A stretch of DNA of 64,000 bases from an uncultured bacterium. GTDB taxonomy: Bacteria > Patescibacteriota > Minisyncoccia > Phycocordibacterales > UBA11359. A program made the translations under genes and the position numbers. Shown here piece by piece: positions 2,849 through 57,719 of this stretch (positions within the stretch are counted from its first letter, which is position 1; every line of letters begins with the position of its first letter). Location: NCBI GenBank assembly GCA_903831815.1, contig CAIKZC010000002.1, positions 7,244 to 71,243 on the forward strand, read 5' to 3'. The notes beneath the pieces were generated by a model. That model ran no database searches. It saw only the letters and a list, made by a program, of their open reading frames with translations, and was not told where the DNA came from.

Positions 2849-4711
2849 CTAGTAAGCTGGGGTCTCAACTAGATTTGCAATAGCAGTATTTGCTACGTTC
2901 GTGATTGTACCACGTACTAATCCAGTTACACCACCGGCAGATGCCAACTTTACAGTAAGAGTAAAGTTTGCAGTATCACCAGCAGAGATGGTGAAGTCAT
3001 TCGAACCATCCTTTGTCAAATCAGTGCTGTCAAGTACAGCATCAGTTGTAGTTGCGCCTGTAACATTGAAGACGACAACCTTTGCGCCAGCTGATTGGCT
3101 AGCCTGACCTGATGTCTTTCCAGTACCGAACTGATCTTGTGAAAGGGTAATATCGCTGTCACCCAAAGCTGCAACTTGGAAGGTCATCTTTAGGGTTCCA
3201 TCAATATGATCAGTTACGTTTGGAGCTACGTAAGAGCTAGATACAAGTCGTACCTGTGGTCCTGCGATAGCGAATGATTGTGTTTCGCCAGCTGCTGAAC
3301 CGGTAGGATTGATAGCATCGCCATTTGAATCCTCAGGAGCAAAAGCATCTGTTGAATCTGTATAACTTACAGAAGCAGTAGCTGCATCGCTTGATCCGAA
3401 GTTGGTTGAATCATTAACAGTTGCGTAAACACGGAAGACTGCAGTTGTGTTTGCGGCAATATTGAATGTGTCATCCAAGTTGAATGTAGCTGCTTGACCA
3501 CTTGTAAGTGTTGATCCATCGATAGTTGCGAGAACGGTTGAACCATTTCGAAGTTGCAATTCACCAATAACTCCTGGAGTACTTGTAGAAGTAGTTGGAG
3601 TTACTTGAATTGAATCGAATGATACAGCTGAATCGCTAGCCTTGACTTTGAATTCAAGCATCAAAACATCCTTTGTTGAAGCGGTGTCTGATACTTCAAC
3701 TCTCTGTGCTAATGGACTTCCTGAACCCTTTGAAACAACAACTTTAGCATTGCCTGATAGGGCTAGGCTAGTGAATTTGAAGGTCGCAGTTTGTGAGTTT
3801 GGATTCTCGGTAAGAATAGCACCAGTCGAATCTGTGAATCGAATGTTGCTGACAGTAAGAGTCCAGTTTGCATTAAAGTCGGTGGTGTCGATATTTTCGA
3901 CAGCATCAACAGTGACATAGAAGGTCTTCTTGTTGCCTGAACCGTCTCGAACAACTGCGTTTGAAAGCGAAATTGTCTTTGAGTAGGCATTACCAGACTT
4001 CGTGAAGTCAGCTACATCAGCTGAACCGATCTTGGTTGAACCATCCCATACGCTAACAGTGTTAACATATCGGCTAAGTCGTAGTGATGATGCGCTTGCG
4101 CCATCAGCTAGGAAGCTAACCTTAACGCTGGTAACAGCGATGTCAGATCCATCAGCCTCAACCTTGAAGCCGTAAACCTTAACATTGCTTGAACCTTCGT
4201 CAACAGATGACTCAACATCAGTTGCGGTCTTTGTAACAGTTGCGCTACCTGCGCCACCATTAAGAGAACCGTTTGATGCGCCTGGAGCTGACATACAGTT
4301 GCTTGCCAATGTCATACCATTTGGACATAGAGCACCTGCAGCTGCGCCTGGGGCAGTTGAACAGTTACTTGCTAGTGTCTTGCCATTTGGGCAAAGAGCA
4401 CCTGCAGCTGGAGCGCCGTTAAGAGCACCTCGAGTTATAGAACCAACGAAACCAGCTGCTGGCGTAATGCCATTTGCAACTTGGTATTTGATAACAGCAG
4501 CCTTTGTTGCAGCACCGAAGTATCCCATGCTGACGCCAGCTGGCATTGTCAAATAACCACCGCTAACGAGGGTTGTTTGAAGTGCAACTACGTCTGCACC
4601 TGTACTACCAACTGTAAGATTTGTATTGATTGCTGCGCTTGCAACAGTTGTGATGGTCAAAGCCATTGCAACTACGAAAGCTACGGCAAGAATTTTTGTA
4701 GATAATTTCAT
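2849..4711 (-). CDS. cell-surface protein: signal peptide, N-terminal peptidoglycan-binding domain, Cys-containing tandem repeats, long Ser/Thr-rich Ig-like region
   Basis: MKLSTKILAVAFVVAMALTITTVASA signal peptide. VVALQTTLVSGGYLTMPAGVSMGYFGAATKAAVIKYQVANGITPAAGFVGSITRGAL matches the PG-binding fold. Repeated APAAGALCPNGKTLASNCSTAPG units. Confidence 0.7.
   Translation of the reverse strand: MKLSTKILAVAFVVAMALTITTVASAAINTNLTVGSTGADVVALQTTLVSGGYLTMPAGVSMGYFGAATKAAVIKYQVANGITPAAGFVGSITRGALNGAPAAGALCPNGKTLASNCSTAPGAAAGALCPNGMTLASNCMSAPGASNGSLNGGAGSATVTKTATDVESSVDEGSSNVKVYGFKVEADGSDIAVTSVKVSFLADGASASSLRLSRYVNTVSVWDGSTKIGSADVADFTKSGNAYSKTISLSNAVVRDGSGNKKTFYVTVDAVENIDTTDFNANWTLTVSNIRFTDSTGAILTENPNSQTATFKFTSLALSGNAKVVVSKGSGSPLAQRVEVSDTASTKDVLMLEFKVKASDSAVSFDSIQVTPTTSTSTPGVIGELQLRNGSTVLATIDGSTLTSGQAATFNLDDTFNIAANTTAVFRVYATVNDSTNFGSSDAATASVSYTDSTDAFAPEDSNGDAINPTGSAAGETQSFAIAGPQVRLVSSSYVAPNVTDHIDGTLKMTFQVAALGDSDITLSQDQFGTGKTSGQASQSAGAKVVVFNVTGATTTDAVLDSTDLTKDGSNDFTISAGDTANFTLTVKLASAGGVTGLVRGTITNVANTAIANLVETPAY
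4297..4415 (-). repeat. in-frame tandem direct repeat, 2 x about 57 bp, inside the 2849..4711 CDS
   Basis: Near-identical 57-bp units (..CCATTTGGRCAWAGAGCACCTGCAGCTG..) encoding the duplicated Cys-containing ALCPNG(K/M)TLASNC peptide. Confidence 0.6.
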
Positions 4712-10247: not shown

Positions 10248-10585
10248 TTTCGCTTTACCTCCTCTTCACTTGCATTTGCGAATCATCTGAGTAGTATGAT
10301 AAACAGAAATGATTGTTCTAATACCCTCTAACCTTGGGAGACTTATCCATGAGAACTTCAGTGTGGCCCGATTGGTTTCATCATCACGGAACCAAAGTCC
10401 GCGTCAAAGACGGATGCTCTCCAAATCTACTCATTCTGGAAAGTAGCGCCGGAAGTCTGGTGATACGGCGAAAGAGCGACAACAAATGGACTGTGGACTG
10501 GTAAGTCAGCCAATCCGAGGAAACAGGTGAATTTTCGACCGGAAGACGAATCTTCACGTCAGATGAACTTCGGATTGCCTTTGGA

Positions 10586-53809: not shown

Positions 53810-54580
53810 TTAAGTTAAAATTTGTTCAAGCTCTCCGACTTTCTTCAAATAAATAGAGCAACTTTTACAATCGCAATTTAGATCGGCTACGGGACGAGCT
53901 CCACCAAGAGGCTTCAACACATAATCTTTTACGACAAGCCATAGCTTAAATTTTTTGTTGAGATCAGCTTCCTTTAAAAATTTTTCAATAAGGACCGAAA
54001 AAGGTTTGTCCCAAGACCTTAAATCCTTTAATAAGCGCTTTGAGCTAACCTGCCATCTTCCAACGGTCCTATAACGCATTTCTATCAAATTCGTAAGATT
54101 GGTGTGCATGCCCGCAAATGCAGCAGCAGGGTCGCTTTGCAAATATCGTTCAATACAGTTGGTAAAATGATAAGCAAGAAAAATAATACCTTCATAATCG
54201 GCCGGCTTATATTTTGGTGCTTTTACTTTAGAGTATTTTTTCTTCAGCTCGCGAAGCTTACCTGTCTTATCAAAAATAATTATCGATTCGGCGATCATCG
54301 GTACTCGTTCTCGTTTCGCCACCTGTTTGTCCATCACGGCGATAATATGATCATAAGACATGAATGTAATATCCAACTTCACTCCGCGAATGAAAGGATG
54401 ACTCACATGCGTGCAGTCACTTTTATCCACCAGAACTTTTACATCAATATCACTTTCCTTCCCAAATTCTCCTCGAGCCGCCGAACCAAAAATATAAGCA
54501 CCAAGAAAATGCTTGTCATTATCTAGCTTCTTTAAATCTTCCAAAATAGATTTCTGTAGCTTTTTGTAATCCATAGCCAA
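53810..54580 (-). CDS. nucleotidyltransferase of the Pol-beta superfamily, ANT(4')/KNTase-like aminoglycoside nucleotidyltransferase fold
   Basis: GAYIFGSAARGEFGKESDIDVKVLV (GS...DxD NTase motif) plus a helical C-terminal domain. 256 aa, comparable to KNTase. Confidence 0.5.
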   Translation of the reverse strand: MAMDYKKLQKSILEDLKKLDNDKHFLGAYIFGSAARGEFGKESDIDVKVLVDKSDCTHVSHPFIRGVKLDITFMSYDHIIAVMDKQVAKRERVPMIAESIIIFDKTGKLRELKKKYSKVKAPKYKPADYEGIIFLAYHFTNCIERYLQSDPAAAFAGMHTNLTNLIEMRYRTVGRWQVSSKRLLKDLRSWDKPFSVLIEKFLKEADLNKKFKLWLVVKDYVLKPLGGARPVADLNCDCKSCSIYLKKVGELEQILT

Positions 54581-54712
54581 AGCATACCAAAATTGAAACT
54601 AATTTTACAGCAGGGTTAGAATGCCCGCTGTGATATGAATAATTGACTGAAAATTGGGTGACCACCCGGTTATGCTCCGGGGCTAAAAGCTCCACAAGCT
54701 TCTGTGCTGCTA

Positions 54713-55234
54713 TTACACCATGGTCACCATGTTTTGCCAAGGCTTTACGAAACTTAAAAACCTTCGCTTTTCAAGCTTATCATGATGTATGAGGTAATGG
54801 CAATTGTGACAGAGCCAAACTAGATTTTTTATATTTAAATTTGAGTGATCTTGATCGATGTGATGCACAACAAGAATTCTTGAATCTACCTTGTGACAAA
54901 GTAAACATTCTGCTTTTAATCCGCTTTTTAACACTATTTTTCTATAAATCGTCTGCCCACCCTTCCAACCTAAATGTTTTTTGCCGCTATATTCAACATT
55001 CCTCCATTTAGTCTGACAAGATTTTCCACAAAAATATTTACCACTTTTAGAACGACTAATTTGCGACATTGTTTTATAAATAACTTTGTTACAAACATAA
55101 CAATTGGTCTCTTTTCTAGTTCTTGTACCAAACTTCTTACAATATCTTGAACAAAATATCCCCCACCCTATTTTTTCATGACTAGGTTTTACATAAAAAT
55201 CATTATTGCAAATTTTACATTTATGAATTGACAT
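54713..55234 (-). CDS. HNH endonuclease with N-terminal zinc-ribbon repeats (paralogue 1)
   Basis: Multiple CxxC pairs, then VVHHIDQDHSNLNIKNLVWLCHNCHYLIHH (HNH motif). Confidence 0.7.
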   Translation of the reverse strand: MSIHKCKICNNDFYVKPSHEKIGWGIFCSRYCKKFGTRTRKETNCYVCNKVIYKTMSQISRSKSGKYFCGKSCQTKWRNVEYSGKKHLGWKGGQTIYRKIVLKSGLKAECLLCHKVDSRILVVHHIDQDHSNLNIKNLVWLCHNCHYLIHHDKLEKRRFLSFVKPWQNMVTMV

Positions 55235-55757
55235 TTATTTTAATTTTACTATTAAATCTCGTTAGTTCAGAGGAATTATTATGAACAAGAAAATGGCAAT
55301 TGTGACAAAGCCAAGTTAAATTAGATAAAGAGTTATTCTCTCTATTTTTATCAATATGGTGAACCGACAAAATACGGGGATCTTTTTCTCCACACAATAT
55401 ACAAATAATCGCAGTATCAGCCCTTTTCAAAATATTTTTATATGAGAACTTACCATTTATCCAATTTGAGTGATTTTGTCCCCTATTTTTACCGCCAAGC
55501 CATTTATTGCTACAATTTACGCCACAAAAAAACTTTTTATTCTTTGAATTATTTATATCTTTATTTTTCTTATAGACTTTCTTACCGCAAACAAAACATT
55601 CAATAATTTTACCTTTCTTCCTACCTAGAATTTGACATTTAACTGAACAATAATGTTTTTTGGCAAGAAGAACTTGCGATCTTTTTCTTACAAAATATCG
55701 AGAACATATTTCACATCGAATAATCATTGTTCCATTATAACACAATGGATGACTCAC
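55221..55757 (-). CDS. HNH endonuclease with N-terminal zinc-ribbon repeats (paralogue 2)
   Basis: CxxC pairs, then SVHHIDKNRENNSLSNLTWLCHNCHFLVHN. Collinear with and similar to the downstream paralogue; overlaps it by 14 nt. Confidence 0.7.
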   Translation of the reverse strand: MSHPLCYNGTMIIRCEICSRYFVRKRSQVLLAKKHYCSVKCQILGRKKGKIIECFVCGKKVYKKNKDINNSKNKKFFCGVNCSNKWLGGKNRGQNHSNWINGKFSYKNILKRADTAIICILCGEKDPRILSVHHIDKNRENNSLSNLTWLCHNCHFLVHNNSSELTRFNSKIKINVNS

Positions 55758-55784
55758 TGTTAGTATCGAACGTTCTGGATGATA

Positions 55785-56339
55785 CTATTTGTAATTAGGC
55801 GATTCTTCGGTAATTCCAGACTTGTGGTTACTTAGTCTAGCGAGAGCATAGAGAATGCTGGAAAGACGATTGAGAAAAGCGAGGGTTGTCGGTTGAATTT
55901 TAACCTTCCCCTCTTCAGCGACCGCGACGACTCGGCGCTCGGCACGGCGCGCGATCGTGCGCGCGAAATCAAATTTCGCCGCCATTTCGGTACCGCCGGA
56001 AATAAAGAAGGTTTTTATCGGCGGCATTTCGCGCTCACAGGCCACGATTATTGTTTCCATTTCTTTGATTTTTTCTTCCGGCACATCCATCGGAAATCCG
56101 GCCACCTGAGCTTGCACCATAAAAAGTGTTTGCTGCAGACCATGCAAGATCGCTTCAAACTTCTTGTTGGCAATCACAAAACTGCGTCTTTCTGAAGCAA
56201 CTTTGCAAATTCCAAGAAACGAGTTTATCTCGTCGAGTGAACCAAGGGCTTCGGCCACAATCGAGCTTTTAGACAACTTCTGGTCGCAACCATAAGTCTT
56301 TGTTGAACCGTCATCACCTTTTCCTGTGAATAGTGACAT
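55785..56339 (-). CDS. ATP:cob(I)alamin adenosyltransferase, PduO type
   Basis: N-terminus MSLFTGKGDDGSTKTYGCDQKLSKSSIVAEALGSLDEINSFLG matches the PduO-type ATR signature (TGDxGxT ... DELNS). Confidence 0.8.
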   Translation of the reverse strand: MSLFTGKGDDGSTKTYGCDQKLSKSSIVAEALGSLDEINSFLGICKVASERRSFVIANKKFEAILHGLQQTLFMVQAQVAGFPMDVPEEKIKEMETIIVACEREMPPIKTFFISGGTEMAAKFDFARTIARRAERRVVAVAEEGKVKIQPTTLAFLNRLSSILYALARLSNHKSGITEESPNYK

Positions 56340-56361
56340 ATAATTTTAGGTTATGAATATG

Positions 56362-56445
56362 TGCTCGGGACAGGACTTGCACCTGCACGCCCTTACGGGC
56401 TTACGCACCTCAAGCGTAAACGTCTACTAATTTCGCCACCCGAGC
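56362..56445 (-). tRNA. tRNA-Leu(GAG)-like, type II with long variable arm; atypical D-loop and T-loop
   Basis: 84 nt. Perfect 7-bp acceptor GCTCGGG/CCCGAGC plus discriminator A. Anticodon stem TACGC/GCGTA with loop TTGAGGT. Variable arm GCCC-GTAA-GGGC. T-stem GCAGG/CCTGT. D-loop lacks the GG dinucleotide and the T-loop reads TGCAAGT (G at position 55). No encoded CCA. Confidence 0.45.
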
Positions 56446-56446
56446 G

Positions 56447-57136
56447 TCATTTTGTCAATATCCGCACCGTCTGTTTATGAACTATAGCTAAACTTTGCTT
56501 AATTTTCAAGTTTTTTCTAGATAAGCAAGTAACATCCTGTTTGTAATACATACCTTTAACTAAAGCAATCCCCTCTTTTTTTGCGTATCTAAGTTGATAG
56601 CAACCATTCAACCTATTTGTATAGGTTACATGTCCATTTAATTTCAAAAACCTGAAAACAGATGCCTGAATCCAATCAATGAATTCCTTACTCGCAGAAG
56701 CAAGACTTAGATAAAACATAAAGCTAGATCTCCAACGTGGATCCCAATATGAATAACTACAACCATCACCGTCAAAACACCCTCTCAAAAAATCGAAGAA
56801 ATATTCGTCTGGAATTTTAATTTTTCCAATTGTTAAAGACTTTGCTGAAGTGATTCCAATACTCTGAAGAAATTCATAAAACAGCACGTCTCCAAACTGA
56901 ATTCTGAAAGACATATTCTTTCCGCCTCCAGAAAAAGTTTTACCAACTTTAATGTCAACAATATTAAGACATTTCACAAAATTATTTATCTGTTCTATAT
57001 CTTTTGAAACAAAAATAATATGTCGACCATCACACGAAAGACAACCATCCGTAACAATCAACCCAATCGAATACGCAAAATTTGCCGACCATTCAATTTT
57101 GATTTTTCCTTTTGGTTTTGGTCCTGTGATGCTCAT
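56447..57136 (-). CDS. LAGLIDADG-family homing endonuclease (single chain with two motifs)
   Basis: Motif 1 YSIGLIVTDGCLS, motif 2 FLRGCFDGDGCS. 229 aa. Stop codon 1 nt from the tRNA-Leu-like 5' end. Confidence 0.75.
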   Translation of the reverse strand: MSITGPKPKGKIKIEWSANFAYSIGLIVTDGCLSCDGRHIIFVSKDIEQINNFVKCLNIVDIKVGKTFSGGGKNMSFRIQFGDVLFYEFLQSIGITSAKSLTIGKIKIPDEYFFDFLRGCFDGDGCSYSYWDPRWRSSFMFYLSLASASKEFIDWIQASVFRFLKLNGHVTYTNRLNGCYQLRYAKKEGIALVKGMYYKQDVTCLSRKNLKIKQSLAIVHKQTVRILTK

Positions 57137-57190
57137 ATTTTCAATTATATTAATTAACTAAATATGAGTTTGGGAGTTATACACAACAAA

Positions 57191-57225
57191 AAACCTCCGA
57201 AACCGGAGGTTTTTGTTTTTTTCTT
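57191..57225 (-). terminator. bidirectional rho-independent terminator between rplS and the LAGLIDADG gene
   Basis: AAAAAACCTCCG-AAA-CCGGAGGTTTTTGTTTTTTT. Confidence 0.7.
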
Positions 57226-57248
57226 TTTTAATTTATTTCGTGGATTTC

Positions 57249-57719
57249 TTATTTTGCTGCTTCGGTCTTTTCGGTAACTTCGGCTTTTGTGTTTTCGGCT
57301 GGAACTTCTGCTTCCGGCACATCCTTGGCGGTACGGATATTTCTCATTTGTCGAGAAATTTCCTTGGCAGCCTTAGTACGAATATGATAGAGCTTTGCGC
57401 GACGAACTTTAGCGCGTTTGATAATCTTAATCTCGTCAATCATTGGAGAATATAACGGGAAAACTTTTTCTACACCAACACCGGAAGCAACGCGTCGTAC
57501 GGTAAAAGTAGCACCGGCTTCATTGCCATGTTTGTGAGCAAGAACAAGTCCTTCGAAAGACTGAAGACGGAATTTATCCTTTTCTTTGATCCTTTGAACA
57601 ACATCAACGGTATCGCCAGCGCGAATGCCGAGTTTTATTCTGCTATCCATGTTTACGGGAGTAATTTTCATATATATTGCGGTGAGGGAAACTTTAGCAT
57701 AGAGCGGCGTTTTAGGCAA
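57249..57719 (-). CDS. rplS: 50S ribosomal protein L19 (with C-terminal Lys/Glu/Ala-rich extension)
   Basis: ...GDTVDVVQRIKEKDKFRLQSFEGLVLAHKHGNEAGATFTVRRVASGVGVEKVFPLYSPMIDEIKIIKRAKVRRAKLYHIR is the bL19 signature. The real start may be an internal Met. Confidence 0.85.
   Translation of the reverse strand: MPKTPLYAKVSLTAIYMKITPVNMDSRIKLGIRAGDTVDVVQRIKEKDKFRLQSFEGLVLAHKHGNEAGATFTVRRVASGVGVEKVFPLYSPMIDEIKIIKRAKVRRAKLYHIRTKAAKEISRQMRNIRTAKDVPEAEVPAENTKAEVTEKTEAAK

Follow-up and report, generated by a model that had tools for sequence, protein, structure and literature searches.

Probable homing-endonuclease cassettes replacing tRNA-Leu(GAG) and tRNA-His(GTG) genes in Patescibacteria

This study concerns two neighbouring groups of genes of an uncultured bacterium of the phylum Patescibacteriota, located in a 64,000-nucleotide (nt) stretch of contig CAIKZC010000002.1 (this whole stretch is called the window below), in each of which genes for proteins resembling homing endonucleases run up to, or into, an atypical tRNA gene. 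In the first, a gene for a double-motif LAGLIDADG protein of 229 amino acids (aa; 56447..57136, minus strand) precedes tRNA-Leu(GAG), a class II tRNA gene (56361..56445, minus strand; ARAGORN and Rfam); in the second, two HNH genes, HNH-B (55221..55727, minus strand) and HNH-A (54713..55234, minus strand), precede tRNA-His(GTG) (54656..54727, minus strand, with an encoded G-1 at 54728; ARAGORN and Rfam). We think that these are probably two free-standing homing-endonuclease cassettes, LAGLIDADG with tRNA-Leu(GAG) and HNH-B/HNH-A with tRNA-His(GTG), which replace tRNA genes, both tRNAs being in working order, and we would put the probability of this reading at about 0.72.

LAGLIDADG homing endonucleases cleave DNA site-specifically, at targets of 14-40 base pairs (bp). 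In the scheme that we propose, the nuclease would cut the ordinary tRNA gene of a cassette-free genome and the break would be repaired from cassette-bearing DNA, which would bring in promoter and nuclease gene along with the tRNA allele that belongs to the cassette. This allele would take the place of the resident one, and the 5' part of the old tRNA gene would stay upstream as a fragment. Later on, the nuclease gene would decay and be deleted, its 3' end with the tRNA promoter remaining, and the emptied site would be open to re-invasion. We guess that the LAGLIDADG enzyme targets the tRNA-Leu gene somewhere from the D-arm to the anticodon-arm, and we would expect cuts near positions 26-40 of tRNA-Leu, near 43 of tRNA-His and near 22 of tRNA-Phe; the tRNA allele of the cassette would resist cutting, and the conserved fragment upstream may double as an operator or as a homology arm.

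Occupied, empty and decayed tRNA sites

Among 80 LAGLIDADG loci fetched from GTDB, three end at a contig edge, and in all of the 77 informative ones a tRNA-Leu(GAG) gene lies 3' of the LAGLIDADG open reading frame (ORF) on the same strand, usually 0-30 nt away and sometimes overlapping it, in the conserved order rluD-rplS-LAGLIDADG-tRNA-Leu. A second sample, made of metagenome contigs picked by a search for rplS and not for the nuclease, shows that most of the sites between rplS and tRNA-Leu(GAG) are empty, about 6 of 40 carrying a LAGLIDADG gene. C-terminal remnants of the protein adjoin the tRNA at sites that are otherwise empty, most clearly in locus L100 (35 aa, E-value (E) 1e-12), which also retains a relic of the tRNA-derived block described below, and more weakly in L095 (E 0.003) and L098 (E 0.03). 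In addition, the ORF is truncated in 2 of the 80 copies. Conservation as a core gene in relatives, which the original prediction made from the letters of the window had named as a finding that would speak against it, is therefore there in appearance only: the synteny is seen in at least 77 genomes, yet many close relatives lack the gene or hold remnants of it.

The history of the LAGLIDADG gene also departs from that of its neighbours. Mean pairwise identity is 0.57 for the LAGLIDADG protein, 0.54 for rplS and 0.50 for rluD; the LAGLIDADG identities are uncorrelated with those of either flanking gene (Spearman coefficient about 0), whereas there is a correlation between rplS and rluD (r 0.57). 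Where hosts have rplS genes 85-94% identical, their LAGLIDADG genes are only 53-70% identical, and LAGLIDADG genes with 74% identity to each other occur in some distant genomes.

In one group of closely related hosts, a clear local case is seen: each LAGLIDADG allele goes with its own tRNA-Leu allele. Between L055 and L078, whose flanks are overall 80-90% identical, rplS is about 85% and the stretch downstream of the tRNA about 80% identical at the nucleotide level, the values dropping to about 58% for the LAGLIDADG gene and about 65% for the tRNA. Two cassette haplotypes are present in four close hosts (rplS 82-90% identical): within a haplotype the LAGLIDADG genes are 72-75% and the tRNAs 83-96% identical, against 53-57% and 66-73%, respectively, between haplotypes. 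L112, which belongs to the same group, has an empty allele.

The HNH genes tell a similar story at tRNA-His. In 9 of 9 independent loci one or two HNH genes lie between pduO, or other genes, and tRNA-His, with 3' ends at anything from 19 nt before the tRNA to 15 nt inside it (in the window, the last 15 nt of HNH-A are inside tRNA-His); in most relatives pduO is followed directly by tRNA-His. In L034, a fragment of 43 nt located about 60 nt upstream of the HNH gene reproduces positions 1-43 of a canonical tRNA-His with 97.7% identity, and the complete tRNA-His downstream is very different from this fragment and has the A18:G55 elbow discussed below; nothing significant of this kind was found upstream of HNH in the other eight loci. 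A tRNA-His of the window type also follows HNH in L171. Another one (A18, T-loop AGCAUAA) stands in L013 at 10276-10347 with no HNH ORF upstream, and the nuclease may have been lost from that site.

The two HNH paralogues of the window are, as had been noticed, in tandem and overlapping (by 14 nt), and they are 39% identical. The size first given for HNH-A (173 aa) holds; that of HNH-B (178 aa) corresponds to the ORF as listed (55221-55757, with a GTG start at 55757), and homologues suggest instead an ATG at 55727 and 168 aa. The idea that the duplication was recent does not survive the comparison of six paired loci. In these, upstream copies cluster together and downstream copies likewise, single-copy loci forming a third group and HNH-B falling with the upstream copies of the five other loci, so that the duplication must be old and the pair a conserved unit.

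Taken as a whole, the LAGLIDADG gene is not a relic peculiar to this genome, nor does it belong to the core, and both nuclease genes are site-specific occupants of the place just 5' of a tRNA gene, present in some relatives and absent from others in the manner of mobile homing-endonuclease genes.

Other nuclease-tRNA pairings point in the same direction. A sister LAGLIDADG subfamily, 43% identical to the window protein and with at least 370 members, occurs in Doudna-, Wildermuth-, Yanofsky- and Niyogibacteria. Its ORF runs 10 nt into tRNA-Phe(GAA) in 5 of 5 loci, set in varied neighbourhoods, the stop codon being formed by U8-A9-G10 of the tRNA, and a tRNA-Phe 5' fragment lies upstream of the promoter of the nuclease gene; in L205 this fragment matches positions 1-19 of another tRNA-Phe allele at 19 of 19 nt. 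What may be a fourth pairing is found in a Niyogibacteria genome (CP066691.1, locus L204), where an HNH-like ORF (1-356) ends 1 nt before tRNA-Leu(UAA) (357-440). Among 1.8 billion representatives, a profile search finds 251 clusters at E <=1e-30. We also note in L203 a short GIY-YIG ORF (86 aa, 4074-4334), about 750 nt downstream of a tRNA-Phe/tRNA-Gly pair that follows the LAGLIDADG gene.

Both kinds of enzyme look active, judging from their catalytic motifs, which are intact. The LAGLIDADG protein scores 26.3 bits with Pfam LAGLIDADG_3 (PF14528, cut-off 22.5), and the TGA stop codon of its gene lies 1 nt from the 5' end of tRNA-Leu, both as expected from the original prediction. The Asp residues of its two motifs, GLIVTD30G and FDGD124G, are invariant in sets of 21 and 78 homologues, as is GDG. 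An AlphaFold2 model (predicted local distance difference test score 87.4, predicted template modelling score 0.85) has two alpha-beta-beta-alpha-beta-beta-alpha repeats, that is, a pseudo-dimeric fold, for which the best solved match in Foldseek is I-Tsp061I (E 5e-12), with I-SceI, I-AniI and I-DmoI also found, as well as the bI3 maturase and WhiA; the family profile matches PDB entry 2dch (E 1e-6). The family is large: there are 2893 homologues at E <=1e-5 (among the matches listed, 56-74% identical, all those with a named source being Patescibacteria) and at least 386 species genomes with a relative in a scan of one genome per species.

HNH-A has two N-terminal CxxC...CxxxC zinc modules followed by the HNH domain. 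Twelve Cys and the catalytic H, N and H are invariant in 23 HNH homologues (invariant residues C110, C113, H124, H125, N137, C142, C145 and H146). With Pfam the two window proteins score 18.5 and 22.2 bits, below the curated cut-off of 24.8 (HNH-B matches HNH_3 at E 1e-4 and HNH at E 1.5e-3), and HNH_3 is matched at E <0.01 by 17 of the 23 homologues. The family profile matches the solved HNH domains of IscB (E 5.8e-5) and of a group II maturase (E 4e-4), and the family has at least 493 homologues with 48-79% identity.

The tRNA-derived block and the altered elbow

In most of 86 loci bearing the LAGLIDADG gene, a conserved block, AATTGGTAGACGCTAT..CCTTGAGG, lies about 12 nt after the rplS terminator. 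A -10 box comes directly after it or 16-17 nt later, and the ATG another 6-7 nt on; in the alignment of the 86 upstream regions the TATAAT column is 90-99% conserved, and the order of rplS terminator and then cassette is kept. This short distance between -10 box and ATG implies a leaderless mRNA. In the window, the putative -10 box of the LAGLIDADG gene (TATAAT, read from the sequence) is at 57144..57149 on the minus strand, 7 nt 5' of the ATG. The block corresponds to positions ~14-39 of tRNA-Leu(GAG), in the version that dominates empty sites (A[T/C]TGGTAGACGCACTACCTTGAGGTG), plus one extra base in the middle. Per column it is 80-99% conserved in most of the 86 loci, with LAGLIDADG proteins only about 57% identical, which argues that the block is either selected or constantly renewed.

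The tRNA-Leu alleles themselves differ according to occupancy. The D-loop AAAYTGGTAGA is present at 17 of 36 empty sites versus 5 of 83 occupied ones (p 5e-7), and occupied sites agree less well with the D-arm 13-mer (p 7e-5), with no such drop for the anticodon part. The tRNA-Leu at empty sites of the L112 or L106 type has GGCGAAATTGGTAGACGCACTACCTTGAGGTGG. This difference in resident D-arms would fit a nuclease whose recognition covers the tRNA gene from D-arm to anticodon-arm and a cassette tRNA that escapes it, and is only suggestive in this respect.

A promoter-like site, TTGAAA-17-TATAGT, is embedded in the 3' end of the LAGLIDADG ORF (56481..56509, minus strand), 36 nt before tRNA-Leu; it agrees with the consensus at 10 of 12 positions and is probably the promoter that serves the tRNA. 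Of 83 occupied loci, 43 have a similar site (at least 9/12) in the 80 nt that precede the tRNA, and the site is also kept in the ORF remnants where the LAGLIDADG gene has been lost. We think that the tail of the ORF survives deletion because this site lies within it.

Both tRNAs of the window have an unusual elbow. G19 and C56 are kept, G18 is replaced by A and U55 by G; tRNA-His has in addition A for U54 and U for A58. In tRNA-Leu(GAG) the D-loop is AAAUUAGUAGA and the T-loop UGCAAGU; in tRNA-His(GTG), which the original prediction had passed over, they are AAUAGCA (A18) and AGCAUAA (A54, G55, U58). For tRNA-Leu, a G had indeed been seen at T-loop position 55, and the D-loop had been said to lack G18G19, of which only G18 is missing; likewise, the D-loop/T-loop contact, thought to be altered on both sides, is so altered at the 18:55 pair and is intact at 19:56. 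The other four tRNAs of the window are canonical.

We think that both tRNAs look functional, with G18:Psi55 exchanged for A18:G55. tRNA-Leu has the discriminator A73 and a long variable arm, with no encoded CCA, and tRNA-His an encoded G-1 opposite C73; A73 with the long variable arm, and G-1:C73, are the charging identity elements for leucine and histidine, respectively. ARAGORN, which had been proposed as a check of this region, calls tRNA-Leu(GAG) at 56361-56445. With the Rfam tRNA model (RF00005) the two genes score 44.2 (Leu) and 45.6 bits (His) in a local scan of ~3 kb, the gathering score being 29; a scan of the whole window with default filters overlooked both, and atypical tRNAs of this kind may well be under-called by annotation pipelines. 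Of the 325 CUN codons in 12 ORFs of the window, 256 are CUU or CUC. The proposal that tRNA-Leu is a decaying pseudogene is thus contradicted by a score above threshold, by the perfect covariation of the odd positions in 26 tRNAs and by the prevalence of CUU and CUC among CUN codons.

The covariation is apparent in 343 tRNAs collected from the loci: 301 combine GG with TTC, 26 AG with xGC, 13 GG with TCC, and 3 show other combinations, and neither G18A alone nor U55G alone occurs among them. The A18:G55 pair is present in 21 of 119 tRNA-Leu(GAG) genes from relatives; for tRNA-Leu(GAG) and tRNA-His together the figure is 25 of 180, versus none of 125 for tRNA-Val(TAC) and tRNA-Arg(TCT) (p 1.5e-6). 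It is found in two different D-arm designs, and L056 and L078 differ in their elbow despite a common cassette haplotype, which indicates that A18:G55 arose more than once. At tRNA-Leu its association with the presence of the LAGLIDADG gene is not significant (18 of 83 versus 3 of 37, p 0.12); at tRNA-His the corresponding figures for HNH are 3 of 9 versus 1 of 52 (p 0.009), with very few cases.

One can imagine that the endonucleases themselves drive this remodelling, if they read the D-loop GG and TΨC regions, which are the least variable in tRNA genes: a single change, G18A or U55G, would protect the tRNA gene from cutting, a change of the partner would restore the pair, and the resistant tRNA would spread together with the nuclease, the promoter block being an uncleavable copy of the target that serves as an autoregulatory operator, as with I-TevI. 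We consider this extension tentative and rather doubtful.

Once each, A18:G55 also occurs in tRNAs with no adjoining nuclease gene, namely an initiator tRNA-Met (L125 1533-1604), a tRNA-Cys (L129 962-1034) and a tRNA-Leu(CAG) (L007 1751-1834). A second elbow variant, with the T-loop UCCGAxU (C for U55) and G18G19 kept, was seen in 13 tRNAs (Val, Arg, His, Gly and Ile; L102 690-762, L111 2656-2729, L120 510-583, L122 1213-1288, L130 2937-3011, L132 3877-3951, L127 376-449, L129 6282-6353, L066 9123-9194 and L080 3624-3695), so that U55 is not invariant in the phylum Patescibacteria.

Competing explanations

Several observations weigh against the cassette hypothesis, and the conclusions should be read with them in mind. 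The LAGLIDADG proteins are about 57% identical across the whole class, like a ribosomal protein, which is unusually high for a selfish nuclease and could indicate a host function. The window's own LAGLIDADG copy has no tRNA-derived block. Where present, the upstream fragment is always cut short in one identical way and always has one particular extra base, which is better accounted for by inheritance and selection than by fresh scars. Identity between fragment and resident D-arm is possible at tRNA-Phe, as L205 shows, so that divergence of the D-arm cannot be a general rule of immunity. Globally, the similarity of tRNA-Leu alleles is only loosely tied to that of the LAGLIDADG genes (Mantel r 0.16; for the host, 0.11; the Mantel correlations are weak in every direction), and the case for joint travel of tRNA and nuclease therefore rests on the local haplotype example. 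Close relatives of the nucleases were not found on viral contigs: a search of IMG/VR gave, for LAGLIDADG, nothing closer than distant relatives (24-34% identity), none of them near a tRNA, and, for HNH, a single partial match. Finally, the p-values given here are optimistic, species not being independent and the locus sets having been picked in different ways (by LAGLIDADG or by rplS similarity), and the whole case rests on comparative data.

A first alternative is that of domesticated nucleic-acid-binding proteins, the host keeping the LAGLIDADG protein (and the HNH pair) in order to express, fold or process the adjacent tRNA, with the upstream block as a regulatory site. LAGLIDADG maturases act on introns and WhiA is a transcription factor derived from a LAGLIDADG protein, and it is true that the structural matches include the bI3 maturase and WhiA, that the protein is as conserved as rplS in a synteny fixed in at least 77 species, that the tRNA promoter lies inside the LAGLIDADG ORF and that a block resembling tRNA covers the promoter of the gene itself. 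However, many close relatives have no such gene at this site, whether their tRNA is canonical or atypical, and remnants and truncated copies exist; the catalytic Asp are invariant, though maturases and WhiA tend to lose them; and the similarity of the proteins does not track that of the flanks, the alleles behaving as swapped haplotypes. We therefore regard domestication as unlikely.

Still less probable, in our opinion, is a generic insertion hotspot, in which tRNA genes would attract unrelated mobile DNA, as integrase attachment (att) sites do, and the nucleases would be passengers with no specificity for a tRNA. tRNA genes are classic integration sites, and the spacing between tRNA-Leu and tRNA-His varies from 119 nt to 5 kb across genomes through variable extra DNA. 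On the other hand, each nuclease family keeps to one tRNA in different neighbourhoods (the first LAGLIDADG subfamily to Leu(GAG) in 77/77, the second to Phe(GAA) in 5/5 and HNH to His in 9/9), no integrase lies beside the nuclease genes, and the insert consists of a nuclease gene and a tRNA only. Of the three readings offered by the original prediction (a tRNA hosting an intron, a tRNA-targeted integration hotspot and a tRNA pseudogene), it is nevertheless the hotspot that goes in the right direction, the other two being abandoned here.

As to the view that the nucleases are left over from a group I intron or an intein, with tRNA-Leu decaying or a former intron host, it draws on the LAGLIDADG_3 proteins of rRNA introns in the candidate phyla radiation (CPR) (PMC11270868), on the tRNA group I introns of Patescibacteria (PMC13011429) and on the likeness of the upstream tRNA piece to a 5' exon, and it is largely refuted already and very improbable, since an Rfam scan of 54300-57500 with permissive filters (E <=10) shows no group I or group II intron family, the downstream tRNA is complete (44 bits), the changes at 18:55 are strictly compensatory, CUU and CUC codons are abundant and the LAGLIDADG gene is intact with its catalytic residues conserved.

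Known systems and remaining features of the window

To our knowledge, intronless homing has so far been a phage phenomenon. SegF, SegG and MobE are examples, in which a free-standing endonuclease gene lies beside the target gene. The closest known case is SegB of phage T4, a free-standing homing endonuclease encoded in a tRNA gene cluster, which recognises a 27-bp site with the conserved TΨC motif of tRNA genes and drives the preferential inheritance of itself and of the neighbouring tRNA genes (PMC2330249). As with SegB, a nuclease allele and the adjoining tRNA allele appear to travel together in the local haplotype case of Patescibacteria described above. Unlike SegB, which is a GIY-YIG enzyme of a phage, the nucleases described here are LAGLIDADG and HNH proteins, known from sequence comparison, of Patescibacteria chromosomes, with no close copies on viral contigs; the cassette consists of one nuclease gene (or the HNH pair) within a few bases of one complete tRNA, and a 5' fragment of the target tRNA is left behind, or carried along, at its promoter.

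With I-Tsp061I, I-DmoI, I-SceI and the LAGLIDADG genes of CPR rRNA introns, the window protein shares its fold, two motifs and catalytic acidic residues, and with intron- and intein-encoded LAGLIDADG endonucleases in general a sporadic distribution accompanied by decay. In contrast to these, the gene stands alone between a terminator and a tRNA, outside any intron or intein, and the target would be kept intact by a whole replacement tRNA and not by splicing. In the fungal mitochondrial atp6 / GIY-YIG element of Allomyces, a mobile ORF brings a replacement piece of the invaded gene, and integrative elements carrying the 3' end of a tRNA gene supply a new copy of the part that they disrupt. As in both, a new copy would make the insertion into an essential gene harmless and the displaced native part is found as a pseudo-fragment (L034, L205); unlike in them, it is the 5' part of the tRNA that is displaced, the full tRNA comes after the nuclease gene, and there is no integrase.

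The non-proteinogenic tRNA-Gly of Staphylococcus lacks G18G19 and U55 (PMC4574755) and is thus likewise a bacterial tRNA without the canonical G18/U55 elbow nucleotides. It is represented, however, by extra copies for the cell wall, with U18U19 or C18U19, whereas the Patescibacteria variants occupy the syntenic place of an ordinary tRNA-Leu(GAG) or tRNA-His, keep G19:C56 and show the specific A18:G55 exchange. Our literature search, whose coverage is incomplete and which is no proof of novelty, found no account of LAGLIDADG or HNH genes abutting tRNA genes of Patescibacteria, nor of A18:G55 tRNAs.

If our reading is true, intronless homing extends to the chromosomes of a huge uncultured bacterial phylum, in a compact design in which a nuclease gene comes with a spare copy of the essential tRNA gene under attack, and this would explain the strong divergence of tRNA-Leu(GAG) and tRNA-His between close Patescibacteria. 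The nucleases would then be new natural enzymes with long recognition sites specific for tRNA genes. The exchanges of the supposedly invariant G18:Psi55 for A18:G55 in tRNAs that look functional make up a natural data set on which a structural rule, and possibly also a selective cause, can be tested.

The cassettes are part of a minus-strand series that starts with an rluD-like gene and continues with rplS (57249-57719), LAGLIDADG, tRNA-Leu, pduO, HNH-B, HNH-A and tRNA-His, in which all the ORFs first noted, and tRNA-Leu, were recovered at their positions. The intrinsic terminator of rplS (57189..57214, minus strand), an 11-bp stem followed by a T run, forms the left edge of the LAGLIDADG-tRNA-Leu cassette. 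The PduO-type cobalamin adenosyltransferase gene between the two cassettes (pduO; 55785..56339, minus strand), correctly named from the start (Pfam PF01923, E 2.5e-41), is a gene of the host backbone, found in the same place in about 25 related loci whether nucleases are present or not. A second promoter-like site, CTAACA-18-TATAAT, with an extended -10 (TG before it), lies 6 nt before the ATG of HNH-B (55734..55763, minus strand).

Apart from tRNAs, the Rfam matches in 54300-57500 are terminator look-alikes only, such as STnc230 and Phe_leader. The near-threshold match to STnc230, an enterobacterial small RNA (57180-57260, 44.7 versus 50 bits), was rejected, being the rplS terminator hairpin with its A/T-rich flank.

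Finally, a 9-mer resembling a DnaA box lies between the rplS terminator and the LAGLIDADG promoter (57177..57185, minus strand); it reads TGTGTATAA on the minus strand and TTATACACA on the plus strand, with one mismatch to TTATCCACA. Exact copies of TTATCCACA or of its complement TGTGGATAA occur in other loci between the rplS terminator and the tRNA-derived block, and also just upstream of HNH genes, 9 of the 20 exact matches in 172 loci falling at those spots (L011 1748-1756; L018 1441-1449 and 4176-4184; L032 7981-7989; L060 5950-5958; L007 3171-3179; L042 5939-5947; L049 1169-1177; L074 5931-5939).

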